This document shows positions 1 through 38,572 of a DNA stretch of 38,572 nt, in pieces. The stretch's first letter is position 1; the number at the start of each line of letters is the position of its first letter. The notes under the pieces are model-generated. The model was not told the DNA's origin. It searched no databases and saw only the letters and a program-made list of their open reading frames with translations. Source of the stretch: a virus. The stretch lies in the IMG/VR virus record IMGVR_UViG_3300028835_001054; one strand, written 5' to 3'. Made by a program: the position numbers and the translations under genes.

Positions 1-144
1 AAACGCTGAGGATATTGGGAATGAGATTGAGATTCAGACGGCTCGCTCCATTTCCATCGCGGTCCACAGCAAAAGCTTTCGGATAAAAGAAATCCTTTGT
101 CAGTTTATGGATCCGCTCCTCAACGCGATCTATTATCGCCTGCT
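1..144. repeat. Terminal direct repeat, left copy (identical to 38429..38572); circular-closure overlap
   Basis: AAACGCTGAGGATATTGGGAATGAGATTGAG...CGATCTATTATCGCCTGCT is read at both window ends, 144/144 identical. It lies inside an open reading frame. Confidence 0.92.
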
Positions 145-7498: not shown

Positions 7499-8425
7499 TC
7501 AAACAGTCTCCTCTATGCGGAGCGCTTGCCCCGCCATAGAGTATCCTGTAAGTTCCCCTTTTTCGATCTGCTCCCAGACATCCTCATCCACAACTCTACT
7601 GGCCAGCATCCAGGAGCCTTTCTTGATTGGCTCCTCTTCAATCTTATAATCGACAGGAGCTATAAAACTCTCCAGAACGCGTATCGAAGCGTCTGAACCT
7701 TCGTGATTGATCTTGTAAACCTGCTCGCTCTCCATGAAAGAATAGGCTGCTTCCCTGATCTCATCCTCATTAGCCCAATCGCCCTGCGAATCTTTCGTAT
7801 CTGGCTCATAGACAATTCCCATAACGATCCGCTCTGGATTCTTGTCGGCTTTCTGGACCCCGACGAATTTTACGAATTTAGAAAACTGCTTTTTATCTCC
7901 TGCCTTTTTGACTTCCTTTGCCGCCTCGAATTTCCCATCGTGATCTTTGCAATGGGCTCGAGCATCATCCGGATCCCACGTATCTTTATGATAGCGATAT
8001 GCCTGCTCTGTCATAGATGTTTCGCCTTTGAGTTTCCCCATCAGGACGGAGTATTCCTTCCCATCGTGTTTACGTTTGGTCGTCCTGATAGATTTGTCCT
8101 TGAAAGCACTGGGAGATTTCAACTGGCAAGCGTGGAAGTTCGGATAAGGCTTTGATATGTCAACAGGCTCGCTCTTGCTCACTTCCTCTGCGACGATCCC
8201 GAATAACGTGCGATCAATCTCAGCAGGCAGGAAAGAAATATCCTGTTTCCGCATCTCGTCAGATACCAGCCGGTATATTTTCATAAAATCCTCTTGTTTG
8301 CAATCCGGCCAGTTGGGATCCATGAAATACTTGTCATGCACTTGCACGCATCGGAGTCGCAAGGCATGAAGAGCTTTGACATCTAAACTATCAAGATCGG
8401 TTTTTTTCAATCTTTCGATCCTCAT
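7499..8425 (-). CDS. Prohead protease, XkdF-like putative serine protease domain (308 aa)
   Basis: C-terminal half ERIVMGIVYEPDTKDSQGDWANEDEIREAAYSFMES..HEG..VLESFIAP..GSWMLASRVVDEDVWEQIEKGELTGYSMAG fits the XkdF-type pattern. Synteny portal-MuF-protease-scaffold-capsid supports the call. Confidence 0.6.
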   Translation of the reverse strand: MRIERLKKTDLDSLDVKALHALRLRCVQVHDKYFMDPNWPDCKQEDFMKIYRLVSDEMRKQDISFLPAEIDRTLFGIVAEEVSKSEPVDISKPYPNFHACQLKSPSAFKDKSIRTTKRKHDGKEYSVLMGKLKGETSMTEQAYRYHKDTWDPDDARAHCKDHDGKFEAAKEVKKAGDKKQFSKFVKFVGVQKADKNPERIVMGIVYEPDTKDSQGDWANEDEIREAAYSFMESEQVYKINHEGSDASIRVLESFIAPVDYKIEEEPIKKGSWMLASRVVDEDVWEQIEKGELTGYSMAGQALRIEETV

Positions 8426-21995: not shown

Positions 21996-22025
21996 ATTAT
22001 ACCATAGAGCGACACGATATGTCAA
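21996..22025 (-). promoter_or_regulatory. Leftward early promoter (near-consensus sigma70, extended -10)
   Basis: Minus strand TTGACA-18 nt-TATAAT with TGG upstream of the -10 (TGGTATAAT). About 45 nt upstream of the Cro-like start. Confidence 0.6.
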
Positions 22026-22085
22026 CCTAAAATAGGCTTTGATTATATCTAAAGCCTCTTTAACTAACAAAAGTGTCGATTTTAG

Positions 22086-22114
22086 TATACAAATATCTTG
22101 AAATCTGGTATAAT
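22086..22114 (+). promoter_or_regulatory. Rightward promoter for the repressor operon (extended -10)
   Basis: TATACA-17 nt-TATAAT preceded by TGG (TGGTATAAT). Overlapped by the inverted repeat CTGGTA-12 nt-TACCAG (22105..22128). Confidence 0.45.
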
Positions 22115-22205
22115 GAGATAATTACCAGTTATACGATCATTTATTTTTTTAAGCCGCCGACCAAGTTTGGCGGAGCAAATGCCAGAACAGATCAGGAGGT
22201 ATCGA

Positions 22206-22922
22206 ATGAGAAAAAAGCCATTTACTTTGACTCTCAAGGAGAAAGAGACGATAGGGCTAATCATCAAAGACAGGCGAAACAGACTCGGCTTAACTCTCGA
22301 CGATCTAGCTGGCGCGATAGGGAGCACAAACGCATATTTATCCATGCTAGAAAACAGTAAGCGCATAGCTTCAGATAGAGTCCTCCGCCAGATCACTGAG
22401 GAACTCGATTTGGATTATGAGTACCTGCGAGAACTTTCAGAAAAAGAGCGGTATGAAAGAGAAGCAAACAAGATTAGATCCAAATATTTTGAGATACAGA
22501 AAATAGCTCAGGATAAATGCATGAACCTGGATAGCTCTGTTCTGTATGTTCCTATACTTGGGACCGTTCCTACTCAAGCTCCACTTGCAGATGAATCGGA
22601 GACAGCTATCTGTGTGCCTCAGAATTGGATCAGTGAGGCAGACAAAATCTTCGCTCTACAGATCAGTGATGACACCATGACCGGTCGGCTTGAGGATACC
22701 GACCTCGTAGCTGTCAAGAGAGGACTCGATCCAGAAAATAATGATATAGTAATAGTCCGCGTAAATGATATGATAATGGCGAAGACAATCGAGTTTATTG
22801 GTAATATGGTTGTGTTAAGAAGCACAAACGGACAGCCTGAGACGATGCACTTCACCGAAAAAGATAAGGAGCAGATGGAGGTAATCGGCAAAGTGATTTT
22901 CAGGATTACCCAGGCTTCGTGA
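22206..22922 (+). CDS. CI/LexA-like repressor: XRE HTH plus S24 peptidase-like C-terminal domain (238 aa)
   Basis: ATG 22206 lies 7 nt after AGGAGG. HTH RLGLTLDDLAGAIGSTNAYLSMLENSKR. C-terminal ALQISDDTMTG...DIVIVRVNDMIMAKTIE aligns by eye with the G(D/N)SM...K pattern of S24 domains, with Thr in the Ser position. Confidence 0.7.
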   Translation: MRKKPFTLTLKEKETIGLIIKDRRNRLGLTLDDLAGAIGSTNAYLSMLENSKRIASDRVLRQITEELDLDYEYLRELSEKERYEREANKIRSKYFEIQKIAQDKCMNLDSSVLYVPILGTVPTQAPLADESETAICVPQNWISEADKIFALQISDDTMTGRLEDTDLVAVKRGLDPENNDIVIVRVNDMIMAKTIEFIGNMVVLRSTNGQPETMHFTEKDKEQMEVIGKVIFRITQAS

Positions 22923-22934
22923 AAAGGAGATGCT

Positions 22935-23432
22935 ATGTCACTGAATTGTGGAGAACCGCAACAGAAAGAGGAAGAGGAACCTGAAATAGAGAAGAAGAAA
23001 GGCATTTGGGCTGGTGGGGATGTATCTTATAAATCTGGCTGTCTAGTAGCTCTGATTGTTGTTGCTTTCGCGATTCTTGCCGTTGTAATATTTCAATTCT
23101 TATCATCAGATGGCGATACAAAAAAGCCAGATATTCTCAAGTTTAGCGCCTCAGTCTCATTCACGGGAACCCAATTTATCATCATTAACCAGGATACTTT
23201 TGATTGGCTCAATGTCAAGCTGGAGATAAACGCCGGATTGATCGCCGGCGGTTATTCACTGGAGCATCCAGTTATGAAAGCCGGGCAGAGCTACACAGTT
23301 GGAGCACTGCAATTTGCTAAATCCGATGGCACGCGTTTTAATCCAATCACAATGAAGCCTCAGAAATTAGCTATTTATTCACGCGATAAGCGTGGCATGA
23401 TAAAGGGATCATATCATGCCCGATGGAAGTAA
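22935..23432 (+). CDS. Membrane-anchored protein (165 aa), candidate superinfection-exclusion/immunity-region moron
   Basis: AAGGAG RBS. Acidic N-terminus, one TM helix (CLVALIVVAFAILAVVIFQFL), then a beta-rich ectodomain. Located directly after the repressor gene. Confidence 0.35.
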   Translation: MSLNCGEPQQKEEEEPEIEKKKGIWAGGDVSYKSGCLVALIVVAFAILAVVIFQFLSSDGDTKKPDILKFSASVSFTGTQFIIINQDTFDWLNVKLEINAGLIAGGYSLEHPVMKAGQSYTVGALQFAKSDGTRFNPITMKPQKLAIYSRDKRGMIKGSYHARWK

Positions 23433-23460
23433 ATCTGTTCGTCAAATCGGCTCAAAATCA

Positions 23461-23548
23461 TCCGCACTATTGAGTACAGTAATATCCGCACTATCGGGTT
23501 AAATAGTCCGCACTATTGAGTACAGTGATCCGCACTATTGAGTTAAGT
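23461..23548 (+). repeat. Four direct iteron-like repeats upstream of the rep gene
   Basis: TCCGCACTATTGAGTACAGT (23461), TCCGCACTATCGGGTTAAAT (23485), TCCGCACTATTGAGTACAGT (23507), TCCGCACTATTGAGTTAAGT (23529). Spacing 24/22/22 bp. Confidence 0.8.
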
Positions 23549-23571
23549 TTTTGGAGGCAAAGTCAATAATC

Positions 23572-24729
23572 ATGCGCTTTTATAGACCCAGAGACTTCTT
23601 TATTACTCTTTTAAAACGATTTAAAAGGGCGCCTGTGCAATTAGAGCTTGATCCGGACTCTCCCGAATCTTCTTCTCTCAAGGCTTCGAAGAGAGCAAAA
23701 TTTGCTTCTCTCAAGGCATCGAAGAGAGCAAAATCCACCCCACCGAAAGAAGTCAAGGAAGCAAAAGAGAAAAAGCCAAAGCCCTCCCCGGAGATAGTGA
23801 GAAGCGAACTCAACCTGGAAAAGAACGCGGTCTTTGCAGTCTCCACTTACAGGGAAAGGTCCAGGGAGGTCATCAGAACCTATGAGACGGATTCGGGATC
23901 CATGGAGCGCAGAGTCGTTGTAGGCAGAGCGACGGACGGCTCCGAAGTCGGTATCCTCACCACGACTCATTTCAAGCTGTATCTTGCCCTCCTGGAACTC
24001 TGGGAGAAAGCAGGGAAGCCAGTTAGCCAGCCTGTCCATTTCACCGTCCTCAAGTTGATAAAACGTCTCAAATTGGTGGATTCAGGGAATAATTATAAGA
24101 ACATGCTGAAATCAATGGAAGGACTGAGAAGCATACCGATACGATTCATTGATAGCTTCCAGACCAAAGATGGAGAATTCCGGTCAACAGGGCATTTGAG
24201 CGTCCTATCGTACCTGGATATATACGAGAGAAAGAGAAGGACGAAAGGCGGAGATAAGGTCTATGGATACGGGGAATTCCAGTTTGACAGGCACATTCTT
24301 ATGTCGCTTGTGGAAAATTTCACGCACCCTCTTCGATTAGATGTGATCACCAGTTTCAGAAAACATCGGGAACTAGCTATACTCCTCTACACATATCTTG
24401 ATCGCCAATTAGCCTTCAGAAGAAAGTTTGAGATTACGCTGAAAAAGCTCTACACGCAACTTGATCTGTCTCAGGCATACATTACCTATCCATCACAGAG
24501 GAAATCGAAAATAGAGCCCGTTCTGGAGCAACTGATAGGCAAAGAACTATCTACAGGGAAGTTATCATACTGCGAAACCGAGAAGACGAAGGACGGGAGG
24601 GATTATAAATTGGTTTGCAGAAAGACCGGCGTTACGCAAATCCCCGCGCCGGAGCCTGTCAAATTAGATTGGAGCCTGGCCCTGGACAAACTGTTATCTC
24701 AGATGGAGCAAATGAAAGACAACCGATGA
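23572..24729 (+). CDS. Replication initiator, RepA-like winged-helix protein (385 aa)
   Basis: Iterons lie immediately upstream. The central region (GILTTTHFKLYLALLELWEKAG...FTVLKLIKRLKL..GNNYKNMLKSMEGLRSIPIRF...HRELAILLYTYLDRQL) resembles plasmid/phage replication initiator protein A-type sequences. ATG 23572 follows GGAGG; the track TTG 23551 is less likely. Confidence 0.55.
   Translation: MRFYRPRDFFITLLKRFKRAPVQLELDPDSPESSSLKASKRAKFASLKASKRAKSTPPKEVKEAKEKKPKPSPEIVRSELNLEKNAVFAVSTYRERSREVIRTYETDSGSMERRVVVGRATDGSEVGILTTTHFKLYLALLELWEKAGKPVSQPVHFTVLKLIKRLKLVDSGNNYKNMLKSMEGLRSIPIRFIDSFQTKDGEFRSTGHLSVLSYLDIYERKRRTKGGDKVYGYGEFQFDRHILMSLVENFTHPLRLDVITSFRKHRELAILLYTYLDRQLAFRRKFEITLKKLYTQLDLSQAYITYPSQRKSKIEPVLEQLIGKELSTGKLSYCETEKTKDGRDYKLVCRKTGVTQIPAPEPVKLDWSLALDKLLSQMEQMKDNR
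23668..23733 (+). repeat. Two abutting copies of the palindromic element in frame inside rep
   Basis: TCTTCTTCTCTCAAGGCTTCGAAGAGAGCAAAA plus TTTGCTTCTCTCAAGGCATCGAAGAGAGCAAAA, read as SSSLKASKRAK FASLKASKRAK. Unit boundaries coincide with codon boundaries. Confidence 0.9.
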
Positions 24730-25082
24730 AGGAATGGATAACTGTCAAGGAAGCCGCGAAACTTCGGAAATGCACGGAAAGAAACATTCTGCAACTGATA
24801 AAGAAAAATGAGCTTGAGGCCAGAAAGGAAGGGCATCGCTGGCTGATACGGAAAGATTCAATAGAAAAGATTTCCGAAAAATCTCCGAATAATTCCGAAC
24901 TCATTTCCGTACTTAAAGCAGAACTCCAGGAGAGGAATGATCAGATAAAACAGTTGCAGGAAGAATTAAGCAAGGTCCGAGAAAGATCCGATACGATTAT
25001 TCTTAGACTTACAGAACACAATCAGCAATTATTGGAAGATAAGCGCCCCTGGTATCACAAGCTATTCAAGCGGCATCAATAA
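24726..25082 (+). CDS. HTH (MerR/excisionase-like) DNA-binding protein with coiled-coil tail (118 aa)
   Basis: ATGA overlap with the rep stop. MKEWITVKEAAKLRKCTERNILQLIKKNELEARKEGHRWLI is a helix-turn-helix_17-type N-terminus. The C-terminus is paralogous to that of 21577..21951. Confidence 0.5.
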   Translation: MKEWITVKEAAKLRKCTERNILQLIKKNELEARKEGHRWLIRKDSIEKISEKSPNNSELISVLKAELQERNDQIKQLQEELSKVRERSDTIILRLTEHNQQLLEDKRPWYHKLFKRHQ

Positions 25083-25104
25083 CACCGCTGGCGGAACTTC
25101 CAGC

Positions 25105-27411: not shown

Positions 27412-29649
27412 CTATTCAAGTGCGATTTGACCCCTCAACTTCAGCGAAGCAGACCTTGTTGGGGTCGCGGCATTTGCCTCCCCGGTATGATGCCTGCGCT
27501 CTGAAAATGATAAACTGGAAACTCTATAATACTGATCGTATTCCACCTCGACTACATCTCCATTAGCGAAGCTAGATACTTCCCGGCCGCAGTTCGCAAA
27601 TGTCTCATTCCCGCCATCGAATGGGATCAGATCCCGCCCGGCATCTCCCTGCGTATTATCCATAGCTGTCGCGGCTCCCGGTTCATCCAGGTGCCACTGA
27701 GCGATTATATTCCCCGCTCCTGATAGATCCTCGGCGGGCTCGTTATAAGACGCTAATATCTCGCCCGCTGTCCGCATATCATTGAAAAGCGCAAGGTGAG
27801 CGATAGAGCCATCGAAGAAGGTTGCACCTTCATGCTGGCCAACCGTAAAATCGGGATCTTTGTCAGCGATACTGTTTTTGAAGCCAGTCGCCTGAGAGAC
27901 AAATGCACCATTTTTGTAAAAATCAACAGTCCCTTCAGAGGCGTCATAGACAGCACAAATAAACGCCCATTCATCAACTACTAAATTCAGGCCGGAGGAC
28001 TGTCCACTCGTGTTACCCCCCATCATTCCGTCATCGTTGATATACACAATCAATTCATCATCGTCTCGCCGAAAAAGATACATGCGCTTATCACCAGCGC
28101 CCAACCACTTACCGACGATTGTTTTGATGATGCCAGAAACACTATCAGGCTTTATCCATACCTGGATAGTCAAATCATTCGCCCCGGTGATCCCCGACTC
28201 AGGAAAGTCAGCATCGCTGCGATAGAAATACTGACTATTACCATCCAGATGTGCGGAGACTTTATCAGCAATAATCGAATCACCCTCATCTCCGATCCTG
28301 TAATCCAGTTTATGGCGCAATATGTAATCATCTGTCAGATTTTCTATACGAATAGCCGCGCCCGCATCATCTAAAACCGCCCGATTCTTTAACGGGACTG
28401 TGGTACTCAGAGATTTGTTCACCGTAACCTCAACGTAATAGCTGTCCAGATCGAGAGCAGTTCCTGCTCCCTTTGTCCCATTCGTCTGAACCAGAACGCG
28501 CACAAAGCCAGTAGCTGTATCGACAAACATCTGCGCGTGCTCTGGCTTCATGAGCGATAGAGAGACAGTCTCTTTGGTGGAGACGCGTGTCGCTCCTATC
28601 TCTACCCAGTTGCCAGCGGTCACATTCCATAGATAGACCGTTACGCCATCCTGGTTCGATGCTGAAGCATCATTCGCAGCGCCTTTATAAGTCACCTCAA
28701 AACTCTGAATATCTGCAGCGGATGCATATTCGCCAGAGATTTTAGGAGTAAACTTATGATACTGATAATGCCCCGTCACGGATGCGGAATCCCTGACGTA
28801 GTTTTCATCGTCATCATCCAGAATATTGTAATCGGCGGTAGTGAATTCTGTTGTCGAGAAATCCCCTGCAGCCGAAGGCTCGGAGGCGCTCTTTGAATCA
28901 TAAGCGCAGTGCGTTCCTGATGGATTGGAGATCCCCGTGAAATTATATTGAGTCTCCAGATAAGCTGTCATCCGCTCAATCGCTGAAGGGACAGCCTGAT
29001 CGTTAAAATAAGTTTCCCACCGGCTCCTGTGAAAATCCAGCATCCGATCAAAGCCATCGTAACTCAATCGCGGAAAGATCATATCGGCCTCTGCTGTAAC
29101 CATAAACACGTCAGATCGAAGGGTTCCATCGAGCGTCCACTTCGAGGAGCTCGCCTTTGGATAGTTATAAGACAGCGATTCAGGATCCACTTCGAGAACG
29201 TTTCCATGAAATTTCAGATCGTCAATATAGAATGCCAGGCCCGAACCTGTACCCGCTCTCAGGTAAATTATTATCTCAATGCAGCCCGCGGGAGAATCAA
29301 CCTCTTCGTAATGATATGACCAATCAGTTTCAATAAGCGTCCCTGTGGAGATGTTCGCAAGATTGGAATTGTCATATATGACATAATCGATCTCCTGGCC
29401 AGCAGCGCACTTATAAGCCATACTAAACGCGTGTTTAGTACTTTCCCGAATGCCGGATATTGTGTAACGAACACCTTTCGTATCAGTATCGGACACGACT
29501 TTCAATATAGAATCACGATCTGCGTCTGTCGTGTCTATAGTCTTCGTGATGGCTGCTCCCGTTTGAGCGACCCATTGCAGCGCTTCCCAGGCCGCCTCAA
29601 AAGGGAAAGTCGTATCTTCTGGATTGGGAAGGAATAATCTCACTGTCAT
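27412..29649 (-). CDS. Distal-tail (Dit position) protein with CBM-like N-terminal and LamG C-terminal modules (745 aa)
   Basis: ATGA overlap with the tape-measure stop. The C-terminal third LDGNSQYFYRSD...LTIQVWIKPD...VDEWAFICAVYDASEGTVDFYKNG...FFDGSIAHLALFNDMRTAGEI has the LamG strand pattern. Confidence 0.5.
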   Translation of the reverse strand: MTVRLFLPNPEDTTFPFEAAWEALQWVAQTGAAITKTIDTTDADRDSILKVVSDTDTKGVRYTISGIRESTKHAFSMAYKCAAGQEIDYVIYDNSNLANISTGTLIETDWSYHYEEVDSPAGCIEIIIYLRAGTGSGLAFYIDDLKFHGNVLEVDPESLSYNYPKASSSKWTLDGTLRSDVFMVTAEADMIFPRLSYDGFDRMLDFHRSRWETYFNDQAVPSAIERMTAYLETQYNFTGISNPSGTHCAYDSKSASEPSAAGDFSTTEFTTADYNILDDDDENYVRDSASVTGHYQYHKFTPKISGEYASAADIQSFEVTYKGAANDASASNQDGVTVYLWNVTAGNWVEIGATRVSTKETVSLSLMKPEHAQMFVDTATGFVRVLVQTNGTKGAGTALDLDSYYVEVTVNKSLSTTVPLKNRAVLDDAGAAIRIENLTDDYILRHKLDYRIGDEGDSIIADKVSAHLDGNSQYFYRSDADFPESGITGANDLTIQVWIKPDSVSGIIKTIVGKWLGAGDKRMYLFRRDDDELIVYINDDGMMGGNTSGQSSGLNLVVDEWAFICAVYDASEGTVDFYKNGAFVSQATGFKNSIADKDPDFTVGQHEGATFFDGSIAHLALFNDMRTAGEILASYNEPAEDLSGAGNIIAQWHLDEPGAATAMDNTQGDAGRDLIPFDGGNETFANCGREVSSFANGDVVEVEYDQYYRVSSLSFSERRHHTGEANAATPTRSASLKLRGQIALE

Positions 29650-32531
29650 TCTTGATACCCTTGCTCTCTAATCCGTCTGCCAATATCTTCAGCAAACTCA
29701 TTTGCCCAGGCTTCGTCGCCGCCATAGACGTTTTGTATATTGATATTGATCGTCTGACCACCACCACCGCCTGAATAGGAAGGCTCTGCTATAGGTCCTG
29801 GCGCTGCTGGTGATGGCTGGGAAGGGCTTGTTTCCTCTGGAAAGAATACCTGCTGAGCTAACCCGTAATTAAGCCGCTGTCGGTATTCAGGATCCATTCC
29901 CTCGTATATGGATCGGCCTCGTAGTAATCCGCTCATAGCACCACCGAAAAGCTCCTCATGCGATCTTACTTTCTCATCATAGCTTACGTAGTAATCATCC
30001 AATTCCTTTATTCTGGCCTTGCCAAGTTCCTTATCTATCGCCTTGATCTGAGTAGCGCGCCACTTCTCAAGCTCTACAGTATCAAAAGCGAATTTCTGGT
30101 AGTAGGGATAATAATCATCATATACTCGCTGGATTAACTCCATGGCCCCTTGATATGCTTCTCCAAGCTCGATCTTGGTCTTTTTCGTGAAAGCGGATTG
30201 CAGATCAAGCTCCGATTTCACATTCGCAGTTGCAGAACTCAGAAACTTTGCCTGTAGCTTTTCGCGTTCGCCTGCTAATCTTTGATCTTCCTGGAAAGAG
30301 AGGTTTTTCAATTCCAATTGGCGCTCGTCATCTTCTTGAGCCATCAGAAATTCGCGTTCAAATATATTATCTGTTGAGCGCTCTAAGGATTCCCTTGCCG
30401 CAAGCTCCTCAGCATACTGGTCTTTCCTGATCCGTATCTCTTTCTGAGAGCGGATCGCCGCCGCCTGAACAGACCAGTCGAAATGTTCCTGAATCAGACC
30501 GCTCTCCTTTTTCAGAGTTTCATCAGAAGTCGATAAACCCTTTAGATAATTTTGCACTTTTCTATCAAAATAATCCCTGTCAATAACCTCGCGCTTATCG
30601 ATCTCCCAAGCATGTTTCTGCGTTTCCTTGATTTCCAAGAATCCAGCCTCAGAAAAATGTTTTGCCTTTAATCCTATGATAGTATTTGTAACACCGCGCT
30701 CTGCCTCAACAGTTTTTAAGCCGCCAGCCTTTACTTCCTCATAATAAGCAATCGCCTGGAGTATATTCTGCCCGTAGCCTTCCCCTGTGATGTCTGTATA
30801 ATCCTTAAAAGCTTTCGTTATATTATCCCATCCGCTTTCGCCTTCTTGCAATGTCTTGGTAAAATCTTTGACAGCTTTTTCAATAGTTTCTGTTGACTCA
30901 GTTGCCTCGTCCTCTGCTTTGCTCAGACCAGTAACTTTCTCTATAGTATACCCAGTCTGCTTTGCAAGCATCTCCATCAGTCTCGTAACAGTGATATTCT
31001 CATCTATGGTCACACCCAGCTTCTTACTCAGTTTATCAAGGTTAATTCCGAAGTCGCCTATAGCTAACCCCGTCGTATAAAACCCTTGTTTCTCAAGTTC
31101 TACTAGACGGTTTTTTAGCATATGGAAAGCCTCGGCCTGCTCGCCACTCGCTTTGATCCATCCTTCGGCATCCTCTTCGGCGCTTATAGTTCCATCACGC
31201 CATTTCTTATAAGCATTGTAAGATTCATTCGCAGCCCAGGAAACCGCTAACAGCGCAGCTCCTATCGCTGCTATTTGCGGCACGGAGGTTGCACTGACCA
31301 TCTGCCATCCTTTGGCTATCTTTGGCAGTTGAGTCAGCATCAGTCCCGCCCCGCCTGTAACTAAAGCCAAAGCCCCTGCGCTTGCCGCTCCCCAGGCGAC
31401 CATCTTCTTATCAGTCTCGCCCAGTTTATTAAACCATCCGACCGAAGAAGTTATATCCCTAGTGACTTTTCGTATGGCTGGCGATAAGGATTCACCAAGC
31501 GAAATGGCCGCTCCTTCGGTGGCTGATTTCAATAGCGTCAAATCCCCGCTCAAGCTATCCAACTGTACGTCGCGCATCTTCTGGGCCGCCCCCGCAGAAG
31601 AACGAAGGCTCTTCTCAAACTCAATGAGCTTCGCGGACCCCTGAGATACCAGCTTAGACATTGCATCATTTTCTTTGCCAAAGATTTTGATGCTATCAGT
31701 AGTATCGAAATTCGCCTGTTCCAGCTTTCTAACGATCTCCGCCAGAGTGTTCGTCGTAGGGCTTACATCCTCTAAAGTCAAGCCCATCTCAGCAAGCGCC
31801 TTCGTGCCATCTGGCGTTACATCCAGCAAGGTCTTGATAGCGTTTCGTAATCCACTTGCGGCTGTCTCTGCGCGCCCACCGCGATCATATAGCAAAGACA
31901 GCGCAGCGACATTATCCTCTATGCTCCAGTTCATATCGCTAAAAGCCGACGCGGTGATAGGAATGCTTGTGCTAAGTTTTGATAGAGTGGCTTGCGAGGC
32001 AGATATTGATTCTGCAAAGGTGTCAGCAACGCGTCGAGATTGATCGGCTTCTAATTGAAAGCCGCTCAATGTATTGACTACCGCCGAGGAGGTCTCGGCC
32101 AACTCGCTCTGGGTTGCGGCTGCTAAATCCAATACAGCGGAGGTTGTTTTCATTTGATCCGCTACACTTAGTCCAGCAGAAGCCAGATAATACATACCAT
32201 CGGCAGCTTCTTTTGCTGTGAAGGCAGTTGTCGATCCCATTTCAAGGGCAAAGTTTTTCAGAGTATCGAACTCCTCAGATGTCGCACTGCTGACAGCCGC
32301 TACGTTCTTCATTGATTTCTCAAAACCAGAAAACTTCCCGACAGCAAATGCTAGCGCCCCTGTTACAGCGGTTCCCATTCCTACCAGGGCGAGAGAAACC
32401 GGCTTGACATATTTCGGAACTTCCGTCCCAAGACTCTTGAAACCTTTCTTGGCGCTTTTTATGGACGTATTCAGGCCACCAACGTCCATTTCGATCGCGC
32501 TCCTGATCGTGCCCAGTTGAGAAATTTTCAT
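29646..32531 (-). CDS. Tail tape measure protein (961 aa)
   Basis: TP901-type core FSGFEKSMKNVAAVSSATSEEFDTLKNFALEMGSTTAFTAKEAADGMYYLASAGL, Gly/Ala TM-like segments and a long helical remainder. Preceded by the G/GT chaperone. Confidence 0.85.
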   Translation of the reverse strand: MKISQLGTIRSAIEMDVGGLNTSIKSAKKGFKSLGTEVPKYVKPVSLALVGMGTAVTGALAFAVGKFSGFEKSMKNVAAVSSATSEEFDTLKNFALEMGSTTAFTAKEAADGMYYLASAGLSVADQMKTTSAVLDLAAATQSELAETSSAVVNTLSGFQLEADQSRRVADTFAESISASQATLSKLSTSIPITASAFSDMNWSIEDNVAALSLLYDRGGRAETAASGLRNAIKTLLDVTPDGTKALAEMGLTLEDVSPTTNTLAEIVRKLEQANFDTTDSIKIFGKENDAMSKLVSQGSAKLIEFEKSLRSSAGAAQKMRDVQLDSLSGDLTLLKSATEGAAISLGESLSPAIRKVTRDITSSVGWFNKLGETDKKMVAWGAASAGALALVTGGAGLMLTQLPKIAKGWQMVSATSVPQIAAIGAALLAVSWAANESYNAYKKWRDGTISAEEDAEGWIKASGEQAEAFHMLKNRLVELEKQGFYTTGLAIGDFGINLDKLSKKLGVTIDENITVTRLMEMLAKQTGYTIEKVTGLSKAEDEATESTETIEKAVKDFTKTLQEGESGWDNITKAFKDYTDITGEGYGQNILQAIAYYEEVKAGGLKTVEAERGVTNTIIGLKAKHFSEAGFLEIKETQKHAWEIDKREVIDRDYFDRKVQNYLKGLSTSDETLKKESGLIQEHFDWSVQAAAIRSQKEIRIRKDQYAEELAARESLERSTDNIFEREFLMAQEDDERQLELKNLSFQEDQRLAGEREKLQAKFLSSATANVKSELDLQSAFTKKTKIELGEAYQGAMELIQRVYDDYYPYYQKFAFDTVELEKWRATQIKAIDKELGKARIKELDDYYVSYDEKVRSHEELFGGAMSGLLRGRSIYEGMDPEYRQRLNYGLAQQVFFPEETSPSQPSPAAPGPIAEPSYSGGGGGQTININIQNVYGGDEAWANEFAEDIGRRIREQGYQE

Positions 32532-32809
32532 TTTCTTCCCTTTGCTTTGAGCTTTGCAAGCATCTGTTCCGAAGTCACGCGCTTGACAATCCGCGTTCTA
32601 TTACTTCGAGATGGTCTTTCCTTTGATCTTCCCCTTGATCTTTCTATGATGTCCAGTTTCTTTTTCATGAAACCGTAGAGATATGGCAATTCGTATTTCA
32701 GGACTGCCTCGCGTGTATGACCTGAGTCCAGAAGGCAAAAACTTATCTCTTCCAGCGTGTCTAACTGGTCTCTGAGGCTATATCCTGATTCTCCGCCTGT
32801 GTAGGGTTT
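32528..32809 (-). CDS. -1 frame extension of the tail assembly chaperone (GT-type product, about 92 extra codons)
   Basis: The -1 frame is closed by TGA at 32810..32812, then open from AAA CCC (32809) to TGA at 32528..32530, which overlaps the tape-measure ATG (ATGA). All triplets were checked by eye and contain no stop. Confidence 0.65.
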   Translation of the reverse strand, partial: KPYTGGESGYSLRDQLDTLEEISFCLLDSGHTREAVLKYELPYLYGFMKKKLDIIERSRGRSKERPSRSNRTRIVKRVTSEQMLAKLKAKGRK

Positions 32810-33219
32810 TCAGAGTCTACCTCATTTGCTCTCTTCGATGCCTCGAGAGAAGCAGAAGGCGCATCTTCGCCAGCCTTTGCGTCCGCAACAAATTCATCTT
32901 TCTCAAAATCCGCCTCTATCTCTTCCCGGGTATAGCTAGTGAAGAAATAGATTACCTCTTTGAGAATCTCGTTAGTGGCCGCCTTATCAGTAAACCCTAT
33001 GCGCGCCCCGACTTCTTCTATGCTTATCTCCGCAGCGTCCCGGAGCGCTCTGACCCAGGCAAGCACCCTGAAAACTTCACGATCTAATGGTCCATCTTCG
33101 TGGTATAAGCACTTTGGTATGGGTCGGGTGATCCGTTTAGGCAGGTTCTCGGCAGCCAGGATAACCTCGTTAAGTGTAGCCTTATCACCCTGTAATTTCA
33201 GTAAATCAATGAATTCCAT
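32761..33219 (-). CDS. Tail assembly chaperone (G-type, 152 aa, acidic)
   Basis: Immediately upstream of the tape measure, with an overlapping -1 ORF. Acidic C-terminus. Confidence 0.65.
   Translation of the reverse strand: MEFIDLLKLQGDKATLNEVILAAENLPKRITRPIPKCLYHEDGPLDREVFRVLAWVRALRDAAEISIEEVGARIGFTDKAATNEILKEVIYFFTSYTREEIEADFEKDEFVADAKAGEDAPSASLEASKRANEVDSENPTQAENQDIASETS
32803..32809 (-). promoter_or_regulatory. Candidate -1 slippery heptamer A_AAC_CCT
   Basis: The zero frame reads GAA AAC CCT, which fits the X_XXY_YYZ pattern. It lies 14 codons before the zero-frame stop. Confidence 0.55.
32824..32856 (-). repeat. Palindromic element in frame in the chaperone gene, 15 nt upstream of the slippery site
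   Basis: Plus strand ATTTGCTCTCTTCGATGCCTCGAGAGAAGCAGA, read as SASLEASKRAN (11 codons exactly). Confidence 0.9.
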
Positions 33220-33242: not shown

Positions 33243-33611
33243 TCAGAATAACGCTTTTAACGTCTTCTCCAGGATCGTCCAGATCTTGCCTTGCATCTCC
33301 ATAAGACCTGGTAGCAGAAAAGCATACTTCCCGTTCCAGCGACATTCCACATATATGGCATAATATGTGCCTGCATAAATGTATCCCATGATATAGCTCT
33401 TGCTCTCGATAATAACGTGATGGCCTATGCTGCGCCGGAGGGTACCCGTTCTGTCGGTAAACCCCTTCCCCGTCCGCTGCCTCTGGAACTCTTTTTTGAT
33501 ATGCGCCTCTGTCGCCAGAGAAGCAAGCCCCACCCCTTTGACGCCAGCTTTGACAATCTCCGCCTCGGCGCGGTCAAGATTTTTCAGTACCGTATCGAGA
33601 CCGTAGATCAT
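33243..33611 (-). CDS. HK97 gp10-like tail-completion family protein (122 aa)
   Basis: TDRTGTLRRSIGHHV...YIYAGTYYAIYVE matches the tG.Lr.Si...YA..vE signature of the gp10 family. ATGA-type overlap with the upstream gene. Confidence 0.5.
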   Translation of the reverse strand: MIYGLDTVLKNLDRAEAEIVKAGVKGVGLASLATEAHIKKEFQRQRTGKGFTDRTGTLRRSIGHHVIIESKSYIMGYIYAGTYYAIYVECRWNGKYAFLLPGLMEMQGKIWTILEKTLKALF

Positions 33612-35854
33612 GGGTTCTCCACGGAATATTTATAATCATCCAGATACATGATAGGAACGTCATGGACGACATAATCCAAATTCGAGAAATTGATCGGCCC
33701 AAGCAGGATTTTCGATTCCTCACAATACAACTGGTTTGTATATCCATCGCTATCAGTAAACTGTAGTATCGTCTGAAGAACCGGCGGCTCGAAATTATCA
33801 TCAAAATGATATTCCCGGAAATCTACCTTATGACATGAGAAGTTATCGAACCACGCTGCAACACCATCGCCATAGATTTTGATCGTGAGCGTTCCGCTGG
33901 CTGCCGTGAATCTGTGAGTCACCTTCACCCAATCGGTCGTCTCTGAGCCATTATCGAGCGTTACAGATGCCGCTCCTGACAGAACGACCATAGCCTTGTC
34001 AGCGGTTCCAGCTTTAACATGGCCGCAAAATGTGTACTCCTCCCCACTGGTAATCGTTACCGCCTGGCTCACGTATTTCGTTGCAGGATCGTCGGAATTG
34101 ACCTCATAGCAGAACTCTCCAGACTGTTCCGCCACGTCCTCATCATCTACAGTCGGCACGCCAGTAGTAGCCCACTCGGAGTCTGCAATATCCGACTCGA
34201 ACCCGCCCGCGTCGATATAGTTTTTCGATATATGGACGTTATCCCAGTATCCCATCTCCCCATCTGTCGTCGATCCAGATCCCAGGTCGATAGTCGTGGC
34301 AGTATCGCCAGCCTCGAAATCGAACTCTATCTCATACCAGGTCCCGCCGGTAGTGGCTCCGGCTTGCGTTACGGTTATGCCCTTATCCGCCGCAAGGTCC
34401 ACATCCACAAGCTGGGAAGCTCCGTTAGGTGTAACTGGCGCTCTAAACCAGCCGTGGAAATGATACTCTACATTAGTGATAGTTGTCACCGTATGCCGAG
34501 CAGAGGCTTGAGTCCCATCGGTATTTTTGACTCTGAGAGATCTGGCTCCATACTTTGTATACTGAGTATCTTTCCTGACCTCACAGAAAGCATCCGGCCT
34601 CTTCCAGGGGCCAATCCCCGCGTTTTCCATTCCCCAATCGAAGTTCATCAGATTGGAGCTCAGGATAGCTATCTGAGATCTGCTATGCACTCCATAATTC
34701 GCCGTTTCGCCCCCAACGAATGTTAAAACCAAACCGTTCGCGGCGGTAGCAAGATCTTCAATATCAGTCGCCGCGGCAGCATCTCTAAATGGCCACCAGG
34801 CATCAGGTAATTCCGCCTCTGTTCGTGGAGTAGCGGCAGCCGTTAGAGCCTGAGCCGCTGTCAGGACCACGTCATCATAAATCGCCGCCTCAGCAATATG
34901 CCCATCGAAAGGCCTGCCACCATCGGATTCTGCCCCTATAGATATAACAAGAGCATTTGAGCAATCACCAATATTGGCCAGCGTTCCGGTTCTGGATGCT
35001 GTATCATCATAGCCCTCGACGTAGATTTTACAATCCGCTGCGCTATTCTCATTATAGGTCACTATTACAAAGCGCATCTCGTCTTTGAGGATCGGAGTAG
35101 CGCCTGTCAGGAGATAAGCATCGACTCCATCGTTTACAGCGAAGTTCAGAAAGCCGAAAACGTCAATGAAGAGCACCCACCCAGTGGTCGTGACGTAAGC
35201 CGTACCATCGTAATCAGAGCTTTTTGCGATCAAGACTTCTGTCGTACTTTCACGCCTGCGCTTGAACCTGATGAGGATTGAGTAATCCTGAGTATCCCCT
35301 ATATCGAACAGGACGTTATCAGCGCGGGTAAAATACTGCGGCGCCGAATAATCCAGATCCGCCATCACGCCGATTGTTTCCAGGCTGGGTATGTCGTTTC
35401 CAGCGCCATCGTCGATGTCTACTGACGTTCCTGGAGTAACAGGAGTTCCATCAATGTAGCCCGCATAGAAAGCGCCAGTCTCTTCGCTCAATATGATCTG
35501 CTCATTATCCTCAAAAGAATTGTGAGAGCCTGGTTCGGTCGTGAGTGTATCTTCCGTATCCCCGGTAGTTATAGCAGTGACCTCTTTCGTGCCTGCTTTC
35601 TCTACAGGATCGATACCGCAAAGGTCAGCGAGAGTGTCAACGTTGAAAGCCATCTCACCGATTGTCAAGCCCACATTCCGCCTCACAAGAGTAGCGCCTT
35701 TGAGAACGCGGCTCTGGCCTCTCCACTCAATAATAGTATCCTCACTGACAAACGAGGATCCGCCGCGCCAATCTGCCATCAGGAAATCAGCCGATGCAAT
35801 TACGTCTGATAGACCTGCATAGAATGTGCCATCAAATGCTATATGCTCATTCAT
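33608..35854 (-). CDS. Tail tube protein paralog with ~570-aa internal LamG plus CBM-like insertion (748 aa)
   Basis: N-terminus (..IIEWRGQSRVLKGATLV..IGEMAFN) and C-terminus (FEPPVLQ...LLGPINFSNLDYVVHDVPIMYL) are homologous to the termini of the 167-aa tube protein. The middle has a LamG pattern (ILIRFKRR..VIVTYNENSAADCKIYVEGY..FDGHIAEAAIYDDVVLT) and two CBM-like jelly rolls. Confidence 0.6.
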   Translation of the reverse strand: MNEHIAFDGTFYAGLSDVIASADFLMADWRGGSSFVSEDTIIEWRGQSRVLKGATLVRRNVGLTIGEMAFNVDTLADLCGIDPVEKAGTKEVTAITTGDTEDTLTTEPGSHNSFEDNEQIILSEETGAFYAGYIDGTPVTPGTSVDIDDGAGNDIPSLETIGVMADLDYSAPQYFTRADNVLFDIGDTQDYSILIRFKRRRESTTEVLIAKSSDYDGTAYVTTTGWVLFIDVFGFLNFAVNDGVDAYLLTGATPILKDEMRFVIVTYNENSAADCKIYVEGYDDTASRTGTLANIGDCSNALVISIGAESDGGRPFDGHIAEAAIYDDVVLTAAQALTAAATPRTEAELPDAWWPFRDAAAATDIEDLATAANGLVLTFVGGETANYGVHSRSQIAILSSNLMNFDWGMENAGIGPWKRPDAFCEVRKDTQYTKYGARSLRVKNTDGTQASARHTVTTITNVEYHFHGWFRAPVTPNGASQLVDVDLAADKGITVTQAGATTGGTWYEIEFDFEAGDTATTIDLGSGSTTDGEMGYWDNVHISKNYIDAGGFESDIADSEWATTGVPTVDDEDVAEQSGEFCYEVNSDDPATKYVSQAVTITSGEEYTFCGHVKAGTADKAMVVLSGAASVTLDNGSETTDWVKVTHRFTAASGTLTIKIYGDGVAAWFDNFSCHKVDFREYHFDDNFEPPVLQTILQFTDSDGYTNQLYCEESKILLGPINFSNLDYVVHDVPIMYLDDYKYSVENP

Positions 35855-35925: not shown

Positions 35926-36429
35926 TTAGTTCTCAAGTAAGAACGAGGCCAGCGAACCTGTAGCGCTGTAGAGCTTCAGTATGACATCCTGGACTATCTT
36001 ATCTATATTCGTGAAATTGATCGGCACCCCCAGAGCGATCCCATCGCCAGCGAATGCCTGGAATATCTGCCCACCGAGCATGCATTGGACGAGCCACTGC
36101 ATCTCAGGCGGCACGGTATCCTTATCGAATGTGTAGCTGGTTGCTGGTTCCGTTCCCACCGATTTCAGAGCGTCACTCCCATTCTTTGTTGCTCCATAGA
36201 GCGTCTCAAGAAGTCCAGGCTTGAAAGCGACCTCAGAGATCGTAAATATAATATCGGTCTTTACGACTTCTACATCCTTCAGAACCCGGCTCTGGCCCCT
36301 CCATTCGACTGTCTCAGTGGCGATCTCCGCCACCCATCCGCCCCTGAACTCCGCGACCTCGTTTTCCGCCGCATTCGTGACAGCGGTTGCGTGTGCGTAT
36401 AATGCCCCTGCTAATCCAACTTCTGACAT
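35926..36429 (-). CDS. Major tail (tube) protein (167 aa)
   Basis: ATG 36429 lies 7 nt after AAGGAG. The size and position (after neck genes, before chaperone/TMP) fit a siphovirus tube protein. The call is positional plus paralogy. Confidence 0.55.
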   Translation of the reverse strand: MSEVGLAGALYAHATAVTNAAENEVAEFRGGWVAEIATETVEWRGQSRVLKDVEVVKTDIIFTISEVAFKPGLLETLYGATKNGSDALKSVGTEPATSYTFDKDTVPPEMQWLVQCMLGGQIFQAFAGDGIALGVPINFTNIDKIVQDVILKLYSATGSLASFLLEN

Positions 36430-36440
36430 GATCAAGCTCC

Positions 36441-37109
36441 TTATAATAATTGAGACATGTACTCATAATGTACAGCCTGTGAGTGAGTCGCTTCCGGTAT
36501 ATCGATCTCAGGGATCAAGCCCGACTTGAACACCTCCCTCAGAACGTCGATCCGCAAGCTTGCATTCGAGATGTCATTCTCTTTTTGATGTAGCAGCTCT
36601 CTGATACGATCTGCGATCAGATTCAGAGCCGTTAGAGGCTGGCCTTTACTTCCCGGCCCCGACTGATAATAAATGAAAAGAAAACACATCCCTGATAAGG
36701 TATTCGGGAAATTGTATCCAACAGCGCCATCTAATCGCATTGCAATAGCCGGGAATACAGCAGGCAAGCTCACTCCTGCTGCTCTTATAGCGCTAGCAGC
36801 CACCACTGCCCGATCATCATGGCTCACGGCGGCGCCCGAGACCGTTTCCACAGCCTTCGTATGTAAAGTAAAAACGGAGCCATTGATACTTTCTATCCAC
36901 GTGGCTAACTCGCCGCCTCCGGTTCCAGCCCCCGCGATCTTTATTCCATGCCCGGCGCTGAAACTTGTCGGACTGGCTACCGTGAGAGTATCCGTCCCTG
37001 AGGTTATACTACCCGTTGTCGTGACTTCCGATCCCGATGAGGTAGTAAGACCGGAATCCGTCGCCAGTCGCCCGCGTATCGCCTCGAATGTTGATTGTGT
37101 GACCGACAT
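36441..37109 (-). CDS. Putative tail completion/terminator protein with Gly/Thr/Ser-rich insertion (222 aa)
   Basis: Lies immediately upstream of the tube gene. The functional call is positional only. Confidence 0.3.
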   Translation of the reverse strand: MSVTQSTFEAIRGRLATDSGLTTSSGSEVTTTGSITSGTDTLTVASPTSFSAGHGIKIAGAGTGGGELATWIESINGSVFTLHTKAVETVSGAAVSHDDRAVVAASAIRAAGVSLPAVFPAIAMRLDGAVGYNFPNTLSGMCFLFIYYQSGPGSKGQPLTALNLIADRIRELLHQKENDISNASLRIDVLREVFKSGLIPEIDIPEATHSQAVHYEYMSQLL

Positions 37110-37814: not shown

Positions 37815-38572
37815 TCAGACCACCATGGCGCGAACTTTCTTCCGCACGTAAGGACGCAGAAGCATATCGGCCTCTCTTAAGCCTGTGAGCGGCTTCTGCT
37901 TTGTCGTATAAGAGATCCCCGCGACTGTTTCTGTACCTTCGCTGTAGGTCGTATAGAGCGTATCATTATTTCTATATCTGGCACAGATGATACATGCTTC
38001 CTTGATCATCTCCGGCGGATCGTTTACCGCGCCGTTTGTGTTATCCACATCCGCTGTCGCTTCAGAAGTCCCGCCGGTGATCTCCTCATTATTCTGAAAA
38101 TCCGTGGAACTCCTGCCTGAAATCTTCAGATATAAGGGATTGACATCATTCACTTTCGCAGTGGCTCCGCTCGTCCCACCGGTGATGATCTCTCCTACCG
38201 CGAACGTGCCTGATATATTATCCATATCAAGCCGCTCAGTCCAGCCGTAGCTTCCCACGATATGGATATTCCTCATCCCGCGCGGAAACAGGCAAGATCT
38301 CTCCACACGTTTCAGCAAATAGCGCAGCTCATGCTCGGTTGTGATATTAGTCGTATCAAGAAATACGGAGTGCTTATCATGCGTGTAGTAGGTTGTGGAA
38401 AGGCTCACTCCAGAGAGCGAAATAGCGGAAACGCTGAGGATATTGGGAATGAGATTGAGATTCAGACGGCTCGCTCCATTTCCATCGCGGTCCACAGCAA
38501 AAGCTTTCGGATAAAAGAAATCCTTTGTCAGTTTATGGATCCGCTCCTCAACGCGATCTATTATCGCCTGCT
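37815..38572 (-). CDS. Head-tail connector/adaptor protein, C-terminal part (5' end runs off the window; true start is the ATG at position 250 across the junction)
   Basis: The frame stays open upstream of the track start (GTG 38495) to the window edge, and is continuous with 250..1 through the 144-nt overlap. Confidence 0.6.
   Translation of the reverse strand, partial: QAIIDRVEERIHKLTKDFFYPKAFAVDRDGNGASRLNLNLIPNILSVSAISLSGVSLSTTYYTHDKHSVFLDTTNITTEHELRYLLKRVERSCLFPRGMRNIHIVGSYGWTERLDMDNISGTFAVGEIITGGTSGATAKVNDVNPLYLKISGRSSTDFQNNEEITGGTSEATADVDNTNGAVNDPPEMIKEACIICARYRNNDTLYTTYSEGTETVAGISYTTKQKPLTGLREADMLLRPYVRKKVRAMVV
38429..38572. repeat. Terminal direct repeat, right copy (identical to 1..144)
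   Basis: Same 144-nt string as the window start. Confidence 0.92.

Follow-up and report, generated by a model that had tools for sequence, protein, structure and literature searches.

Why would a phage keep two tail-tube-like genes side by side, and what could the second of them do with a long insertion in its middle? The question is raised by IMG/VR record IMGVR_UViG_3300028835_001054, which comes from an uncultured phage and whose whole stretch of 38,572 nucleotides (nt) was analyzed here and is referred to as the window. On its minus strand, a gene for a small tail-tube (major tail) protein (35926..36435; 169 amino acids (aa) from TTG in the list of open reading frames (ORFs)) is followed, after a gap of 71 nt, by the gene for a 748-aa protein (33608..35854, minus strand), in which BLASTP, hhalign and AlphaFold recognize a paralog of the small protein interrupted by an insertion of about 595 aa. 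For the small gene, the ATG at 36429 is the likely true start; the product is then 167 aa long, the same length as database entry P0001. On balance, we favor a reading in which the large paralog is a minority tube subunit that would display a lectin-like module along the tail shaft.

Relationship between the small and the 748-aa proteins

Pairwise BLASTP found 36 identical residues out of 109 at the N-termini of the two proteins (33%, E=1e-11) and 19 out of 52 at their C-termini (37%, E=9e-7), where residues 101-151 of the small protein align with residues 682-733 of the large one. An earlier interpretation of these genes from their letters, here called the sequence-only reading, had pointed to an identical 10-mer, EWRGQSRVLK, encoded with synonymous differences. 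Both 30-mers were located, at 35699..35728 (minus strand) in the 748-aa gene, where the motif occupies aa 43-52 at the tip of a predicted hairpin, and at 36277..36306 in the small gene; they differ at five third codon positions and all five changes are synonymous. The resemblance between GVPINFTNIDKIVQDV and GPINFSNLDYVVHDV, noticed on the same occasion, is likewise present in the two sequences as aligned by BLASTP.

The relationship is far clearer between families than between the two single sequences. Residues 84-677 were removed from the large protein in 30 full-length homologs, and the remainder was compared with the small family by hhalign; the two were colinear over residues 3-157 of the small family (99.95%, E=1.2e-38), and the only gap in the alignment was a 12-residue loop of the small protein, at the site of the insertion. 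Each end also aligned by itself, family against family: the N-terminal part with 99.5% (E=3e-22) and the C-terminal 71 residues with 98.3% (E=1.2e-14). That the two genes are paralogs, and that the large one is the small one split by an insertion into a single loop, is in our view practically certain. The alignment boundaries modify the dimensions given previously. Shared ends of about 80 and 60 residues had been proposed, of which the sharing stands and the extents become ~83 N-terminal and ~70 C-terminal residues, and the insertion, put at about 570 aa, has to be corrected to ~595 aa.

The only point in favor of a chance resemblance, or of a decaying duplicate devoid of function, is the modest pairwise identity of 33-37%. 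Such an explanation has a negligible probability and is refuted by the profile E-values of 1e-38 and 1e-14, by the intact ORFs of 746-757 aa present in at least 30 relatives of the 748-aa protein (49-77% identity), and by the saturation of synonymous sites beside a conserved protein sequence. Altogether, 33 near-full-length homologs of the 748-aa protein were found within this same range of 49-77% identity, and scans of metagenomes and IMG/VR yielded 27 loci. Wherever upstream DNA was present, that is, in at least 10 non-redundant genomes, the small paralog lies immediately upstream of the large gene, and this holds also for locus L007, where the small paralog shares no more than 37% identity with its counterpart in the window. 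The persistence of the pair down to ~37-50% identity, together with the saturated synonymous sites, agrees with the previous proposal of an old duplication in which both copies are under purifying selection.

The sequence-only reading had also suggested a survey of relatives for single versus duplicated tube genes. Besides the pairs just described, this survey detected distant relatives with a single tube gene of ~175 aa. The small family has 18 close members, and an exhaustive profile search retrieved 47 representatives at 50% clustering, mostly of ~170-180 aa, and the large type formed a single cluster at 50% identity. A different set of distant relatives of the small protein, with about 300 aa (L005 6001..6900, L006 2793..3692; P0066 and some 10 other cluster representatives of that length), consists of an N-terminal domain of ~137 aa, tail-terminator-like according to PHROG, fused to the tube domain, a terminator-tube combination that we find odd. 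A 766-aa protein, P0098, was considered as a second long member of the family and discarded as a spurious repeat match, its PHROG matches being Ig-like (immunoglobulin-like) repeats. No homolog of either paralog was detected in cultured phage genomes by tblastn, nor in GTDB genomes; the family has so far been found in metagenomes only, and one of the source records is labelled marine sediment.

Fold of the shared ends and content of the insertion

The AlphaFold model of the 748-aa protein, built on 33 homologs, reached a predicted local distance difference test score (pLDDT) of 85.4 and a predicted template modelling score (pTM) of 0.81. Its termini comprise a strand (residues 8-14), a long hairpin (25-45/51-70), a helix (72-79) and six C-terminal strands (679-745), and four all-beta units lie between residues 84 and 678. 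The N-terminal tube half (aa 1-83; 35606..35854, minus strand) contributes the first strand, the hairpin and the peripheral helix, with pLDDT values of ~72-89 from residue 11 onwards and 65 for the first ten residues, and the C-terminal half (aa 678-748; 33611..33823, minus strand), which contains GPINFSNLDYVVHDV, provides the six strands that complete the sandwich. The predicted topology is that of the tube fold: a beta-sandwich, a long hairpin and one peripheral helix. Structure prediction of the termini had been put forward in the sequence-only reading as a check of the tube fold, and hairpin, helix and sandwich strands are all seen in this confident model. The model of the 169-aa protein shows the same order of elements, at low confidence (pLDDT 54.6).

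Further support for a tube protein comes from structural matches and from gene order. In BFVD, the best Foldseek match of the 169-aa model was the major tail protein gp12 of BFK20 (E=4.3e-3, probability 1.00, template modelling score 0.44), followed by TP901-1-type, Mycobacterium, Gordonia and Lactococcus major tail proteins. In PDB, its top matches (best E 0.15) were chains of tail, neck and baseplate assemblies, namely the phage 812 neck, the HFTV1 tail, the diffocin collar, the DSR2-tube complex and the head-to-tail connector regions of Douge and Mycofy1. Among the PHROG matches of 32 family members, the two annotated ones with the lowest E-values were both "major tail protein" (phrog_117, 0.0036; phrog_807, 0.027), with weaker matches to tail-terminator (0.19) and head-decoration (0.24) families. 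Furthermore, the genes are located between a tail terminator-like gene and the chaperone-position and tape measure genes, an order that is kept in relatives.

Several results weigh against this assignment. The 169-aa model, apart from its low confidence, had no Foldseek match at E<=1e-3, and the full 748-aa model is silent on the tube part, as its 50 best listed Foldseek matches are all to LamG domains or carbohydrate-binding modules (CBMs). Searches of Pfam, PHROGs and NCBIfam gave no significant sequence match of the tube part to curated tube families, and sequence and profile searches against PDB gave no match of this part to a solved structure. The comparison by hhalign with the family of JBD30 gp44 (PF27730), tried with a single sequence and with an alignment of 27 sequences, was colinear in both cases and significant in neither (probability 0.9%). 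The label of tube protein proposed earlier is thus upheld by the predicted topology, the top Foldseek matches and the gene order, and not by a significant match to a curated tube family; judging from the models, the scaffold very probably has a tube fold.

The insertion consists of four domains and a linker, all encoded on the minus strand. The first is a small all-beta domain (aa 84-160; 35375..35605), delimited by the secondary structure of the AlphaFold model and without a Pfam match. It occurs also in stand-alone LamG/CBM proteins, with 41% identity to residues 262-329 of P0052 and as part of the module of L037 described below, and shows no detectable relation to the extra domains of two neighboring proteins of 222 and 226 aa. 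The second is a Laminin_G_3, concanavalin-like jelly roll (aa 161-345; 34820..35374), recognized by Pfam PF13385 at residues 187-334 (E=2.3e-11, 44.5 bits against a cut-off of 27.6), modelled with a pLDDT >90 and matched by Foldseek to lectin-type domains of PAPP-A and NanB. A linker follows (aa 346-395; 34670..34819), which is 53-67% conserved among relatives and includes the sole internal segment of low confidence (384-389).

The third domain (CBM1; aa 396-546, 34217..34669) is a CBM4/9-like jelly roll according to Pfam and Foldseek. CBM_4_9 (PF02018) matches its residues 410-524 with E=1.8e-5 and 25.6 bits, just below the cut-off of 25.9; it is 57% identical to the same domain in the fibre-like protein P0054 (P0053 likewise), and Foldseek relates it to a CBM22 tandem and to CBM-like domains of Cry1Ac and Vip3. 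The fourth domain (CBM2; aa 547-677, 33824..34216), a second CBM-like jelly roll, is homologous to the third (hhalign 90.8%, E=1.2e-6). Scanned alone it gave a sub-threshold match to CBM_4_9 (E=0.03), and the homolog of L037 matches CBM_4_9 above the cut-off (residues 660-767, E=3.9e-10, 40.7 bits) in a stretch that aligns with the CBM2 half of the insert. Foldseek of the 748-aa model against PDB returned 131 matches at E<=1e-3, the top ones being tandem CBM-type jelly rolls and LamG-type domains: the Cry1Ac protoxin, Vip3, the CBM22-1/CBM22-2 pair of 4xup (E=2.6e-10), PAPP-A and NanB. A LamG domain plus two carbohydrate-binding-like modules, the content previously proposed for the insert, agrees with the firm Laminin_G_3 match, the homology of CBM1 and CBM2 and the tandem CBM22 fold match; what that list lacked is the fourth element, the small beta domain of aa 84-160.

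The same domains are found outside the tube context. In protein P0052, the small domain occurs together with an SGNH/GDSL esterase, LamG and CBM1, and a stand-alone 817-aa protein (L037 3538..5991) consists of an extra LamG domain plus the complete four-domain module, with 34% identity over residues 92-678. L037 comes from the same metagenome series as L018 and could be a donor or a recipient of the cassette. A 766-aa LamG protein of L005 was examined as a further relative and set aside, the LamG domain being all that it has in common. From their sequences, the stand-alone proteins with the module look like fibre or spike proteins, and its occurrence in such proteins suggests that the insert is a mobile polysaccharide-recognition cassette. 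Glycan binding by the insert seems fairly likely.

Between genomes, LamG, CBM1 and CBM2 are 62-69% identical, the two tube halves 33-49%, the small tube protein 42-59% and the tape measure protein 22-52%. The LamG/CBM part of the insert (33824..35374) is the most conserved part of the tail module among the proteins compared.

Covariation of the hairpin and placement of the 748-aa protein

If the duplication is old, identity between the paralogs should not depend on the genome from which they come, and an excess within genomes points to coordinated change. The small (S) and large (L) tube parts of 10 genomes were aligned, the hairpin corresponding to columns 36-62. In this hairpin, the identity of S and L from the same genome was 0.556, against 0.388 for S and L from different genomes, and it exceeded that between orthologs of either paralog (0.465 for S versus S and 0.402 for L versus L). 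In a permutation test, none of 20,000 shuffles reached the observed hairpin value, and the effect was small outside the hairpin. The two paralogs share genome-specific motifs in this region: EWRGQSRVLK in the window (RVLK), FAEWYGQSIARK in L012, LTRQAA in L002, RQQA in L018, RTRK in L026 and, in addition, IARK. Recent gene conversion was considered as the cause of the match and rejected because synonymous differences at identical residues are not reduced there (62% in the hairpin versus 57% elsewhere); with synonymous divergence undiminished, selection is the better explanation. The corresponding hinge loop of JBD30 forms the contacts between discs (PMC11445458). By analogy, and if the register holds, both paralogs would dock their hinge into the same type of socket, as co-assembly predicts.

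These data bear on whether the 748-aa protein belongs to the tube at all. The tube fold is reused in many proteins other than shaft subunits, such as terminators, distal tail proteins and tube initiators, and the Foldseek matches of the 169-aa model are mixed, both of which would suit a protein acting outside the tube as a separate hexameric adhesin hub, an assembly factor, a decoy or a free lectin. Against this, the gene lies within the tail block, between tube and tape measure, in every genome examined, the hairpin of its product changes in concert with the tube protein, all elements of the tube domain are present in colinear order, and the architecture recurs in a second lineage. A role outside the tube is improbable in our view, and the sequence evidence indicates that the 748-aa protein is probably built into the tail.

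The second lineage is that of L040-L042, where a family member of 307 aa (hhalign 98.8% versus A3) has one CBM-like domain (~137 aa) inserted into the same loop, with a weak match to a BppA-type CBM (E=0.07). Its gene adjoins that of a plain 171-aa paralog (hhalign 99.8% versus A3), and both are upstream of the tape measure gene. The tube domains of this pair are 69% identical, and 65% of the codons for identical residues differ, which indicates synonymous saturation. Both lineages thus have a plain and a loop-decorated paralog of the same tube family, with the same loop decorated and a location upstream of the tape measure; they differ in that L040-L042 have one insert of ~137 aa instead of four domains, a reversed gene order, and 69% instead of ~35-44% identity between paralogs. 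Finding such a pair in a second lineage indicates that the arrangement is recurrent and that the loop is an insertion hot spot in the family, and the 69% identity of the decorated L040 paralog over the whole tube domain argues for full interface compatibility.

Within the tail, the 748-aa protein could form one dedicated hexameric ring, located either immediately below the terminator, as a collar, or at the tail tip, as the first disc, and the virion would then expose six lectin modules only. The tube halves of the window paralogs are strongly diverged outside the hairpin (~31-36% identity) and only the hairpin, an inter-disc contact, is matched, for which compatibility in stacking would suffice. 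The stop codon of the 748-aa gene overlaps, in the sequence ATGA, the start of the next gene, which encodes a 122-aa Neck1-like protein, a component of the proximal end. Tube-fold rings of fixed position with inserted sugar-binding domains are known (the distal tail protein of JBD30 and the evolved ones of the 936 group), and six inserts of 62 kDa per ring would be sterically comfortable according to our own estimate. However, the gene is outside the usual distal-tail position after the tape measure, which is occupied by a different, 745-aa LamG protein, and the tube domain keeps all its elements, including the C-terminal tail, in colinearity with the shaft subunit. The overlap with the Neck1-like gene is not universal either, as a 55-aa ORF separates the two genes in L001, and the decorated and plain paralogs of L040 are similar across the whole tube domain and not at the hairpin alone. 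We consider a single ring rather unlikely. Because the L040 lineage keeps the whole tube domain similar to that of the plain paralog, we prefer a distribution along the shaft to one special ring, giving this distribution about an even chance.

One could also reverse the roles and take the 748-aa protein as the main subunit of a fully decorated, thick tail shaft, with the 169-aa protein as a minor initiator or adaptor ring. A tube made entirely of the large subunit is compatible with our packing estimates, and the large protein is as strongly conserved as the small one. Such an exchange is nevertheless very improbable, since the small family is widespread (47 clusters at 50% identity versus one for the large type), the small type occurs alone in distant relatives, and its gene directly follows the terminator-like gene, with some relatives carrying it as a fusion with a terminator-like domain. 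In addition, the ribosome-binding site that precedes the small gene is AAGGAG, stronger than GGGAAAGGG of the 748-aa gene, and the weaker Shine-Dalgarno sequence of the latter suggests a minority subunit. Neither a terminator nor a convincing promoter was found between the two paralog genes.

We therefore return to the large paralog as a minority subunit of the shaft. Together with the 169-aa subunit, it would polymerise into one tube enclosing the tape measure protein. Most likely a minority component, it would be spread along the shaft in discs of its own or in discs shared with the small subunit, and would dock by its hairpin (hinge) loop, which stays matched to the corresponding loop of the small paralog. 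Matching of the hairpin only, as in the window clade, fits whole homo-hexameric discs. The insert follows the single peripheral helix and, by analogy with JBD30, this loop would face outward from the tube disc and the module would project from the shaft. The lectin-like domains might then bind a conserved polysaccharide at the host surface or in its surroundings, in a multivalent and reversible manner and with low affinity, which would raise adsorption before the tail tip engages. An adhesin role is suggested because of the Laminin_G_3, CBM_4_9 and CBM22-like matches and the presence of the same module in fibre-like proteins, one of them with an SGNH esterase; the insert probably makes the tail shaft an adhesive surface.

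Three further observations count against parts of this reading. The tube domains of the window-clade paralogs are only ~33-44% identical, which makes mixed hexamers less certain; the covariation of the hairpin is partly clade-structured and may represent perhaps 4-5 independent events; and the high conservation of the insert is unusual for a host-range determinant and the reverse of what is usual in receptor-binding domains. Given that no other part of the tail is as conserved as the array, its target may be a widespread polysaccharide of the environment or the cell envelope, bound in the manner of an "adherence" with sub-diffusive searching, and not a strain-specific receptor. In its most complete form, which we put forward tentatively and consider doubtful, the proposal is a heteromeric tube of two long-diverged subunits with co-evolving hinges, in which the 62-kDa lectin array would turn the shaft into a multivalent glycan-binding brush.

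Genomic neighborhood, known systems and significance

The genes surrounding the pair, all on the minus strand, are in the order terminator-like, 169-aa, 748-aa, Neck1-like, chaperone-position ORF and tape measure, which is kept in L001, L002, L012 and others. The tail-terminator-like protein of 222 aa (36441..37109) is encoded directly upstream of the small tube gene. Residues 101-192 of its family align with the N-terminal domain of the ~300-aa fusion relatives (hhalign 94.2%, E=1.1e-7), a domain that in turn matches tail-terminator families of PHROG (phrog_78 with E=4.5e-5, and also phrog_123 and phrog_176). The ~100 N-terminal residues of the 222-aa protein fall outside that alignment, have no family match and look like an extra N-terminal domain; add-on domains seem to be present in several neck and tail proteins of this phage. 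Downstream of the 748-aa gene are those for the tail-completion or Neck1-like protein of 122 aa (33243..33611; phrog_5, E=1.5e-10), for a 152-aa ORF that is assigned to the tail assembly chaperone by its position, kept in relatives (32761..33219), and has no family match in Pfam or PHROGs, and for the tape measure protein of 961 aa (29646..32531; Pfam PhageMin_Tail, E=4.5e-32; phrog_1533, E=1e-67). The 745-aa gene directly after the tape measure (27412..29649, minus strand), in the usual distal-tail or tip position, encodes a protein with a weak GH114-associated domain besides a strong Laminin_G_3 domain (E=7e-20). Between it and the strand switch there are just two more ORFs (357 and 319 aa), so the tail tip module is very short.

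Several features of the rest of the genome were also recorded. Positions 1..144 of the window are exactly repeated at 38429..38572, and this terminal overlap of 144 nt indicates that the contig closes into a circle and represents a complete phage genome of ~38.4 kb. The head module (from 12236 down to ~250, minus strand) is on the same strand as the tail genes and runs across the junction into the neck and tail genes. Among these, an adaptor-like protein of 226 aa (37815..38495, minus strand) has an internal repeat of the type 'GEIITGGTSGATAKV...EEITGGTSEATADV', which matches tail-fibre and virion-structural families of PHROG and not adaptors. Within the head module, the adjacent ORFs 7499..8425 (308 aa) and 6440..7378 (312 aa), both on the minus strand, match different parts of the head-maturation protease phrog_3017 (positions 34-156 and 226-396, respectively) and look like a split or duplicated gene. 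The sole plus-strand block, at ~22000..25100, may be a regulatory or lysogeny module; its GC and AT skews are reversed, and it includes a 392-aa ORF without a Pfam match. Transcriptionally downstream of this block, the minus strand encodes an unusually long RecT-domain protein (676 aa), together with a PD-(D/E)XK nuclease and an MT-A70 methyltransferase.

Decoration of the tail tube has several precedents. In the known one-gene systems, such as lambda gpV, SPP1 gp17.1* and 936 TpeX, it is a C-terminal extension of the tube protein, sometimes made by frameshifting. In the window, the decoration is internal (aa 84-678) and belongs to a separate gene. As in SPP1 gp17.1* and TpeX, a minority form of the tube protein would decorate the shaft with an adhesin or CBM, which in those phages binds host cell-wall polysaccharide; their decorated form, however, derives from the same gene through programmed frameshifting, with a C-terminal domain and an identical tube domain, whereas here it is the product of a diverged gene with an internal insert (PMC6669499). 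In 936-group phages, the CBM extensions of TpeX bind host cells in fluorescence assays (PMC6669499).

The sequence-only reading had taken the known tube decorations to be C-terminal only, which does not hold for the major tail protein gp44 of JBD30. Its cryo-EM structure comprises a sandwich (residues 8-41, 62-73 and 184-256), a hinge loop (42-62), a helix (77-83) and an Ig-like decoration domain (88-175) inserted at the same topological site (PMC11445458). The order and sizes of the elements are those described above for the 748-aa protein, with the decoration placed straight after the peripheral helix and projecting from the disc; the difference is that gp44 carries one Ig-like domain of 88 aa in the sole tube gene, and the window phage ~595 aa in four domains, in a separate paralog beside an undecorated subunit. 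Separate paralogous tube genes are known from Microbacterium phage Damascus, with products of 286 aa (gp17), 609 aa (gp19) and 255 aa (gp20) (OQ995438; PMC11080557). There too the genes are adjacent and one of them is much larger, gp19 being 51% and 45% identical to gp17 and gp20 over ~215 residues, but the extra ~390 aa of gp19 are C-terminal and without a Pfam match, and there is no homology to the window family. Since inserted decorations and tube paralogs both have precedents, in JBD30 and Damascus respectively, the novelty of the locus is smaller than the sequence-only reading implied.

Distal tail proteins (Dit) offer another comparison. They are encoded immediately after the tape measure and have an N-terminal tube-like belt plus a galectin-type domain. 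The 748-aa gene lies upstream of the tape measure, and its tube domain is split between the N- and C-terminus instead of being N-terminal only. The evolved distal tail proteins of 936-group and Lactobacillus phages (PMC6669499) and the distal tail protein of JBD30 (PMC11445458) carry CBMs inserted in loops and are thus also rings of tube-like fold with carbohydrate-binding domains, but they are encoded after the tape measure and form a single ring at the tip, whereas the 748-aa gene precedes the chaperone-position ORF and its product is a colinear paralog of the shaft subunit. Membership of the neck passage structure was considered and rejected, as such proteins use a BppU-type N-terminal ring and not the tube fold. 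None of the systems compared joins a separate, diverged paralog with a four-domain internal insert of 595 aa, and no sequence relationship to them exists.

For the ~170-aa tube protein and its relatives, an orphan structural family unrecognized by any curated library, the results provide a working annotation. If the proposed reading is true, gene duplication followed by insertion into a surface loop would be a third route to shaft decoration, beside C-terminal extension and programmed frameshifting. Tubes could then be built from two diverged subunits that need to stay compatible, and the co-varying hairpin would be a concrete interface at which this compatibility is kept. Within the family, the post-helix loop accommodates between one and four domains (137 to 595 aa), which makes it an attractive site for engineering display on tails, and under the same reading it would be a naturally validated display site that tolerates ~600 residues. 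Finally, a lectin module conserved to such an unusual degree suggests that its glycan ligand is conserved as well.

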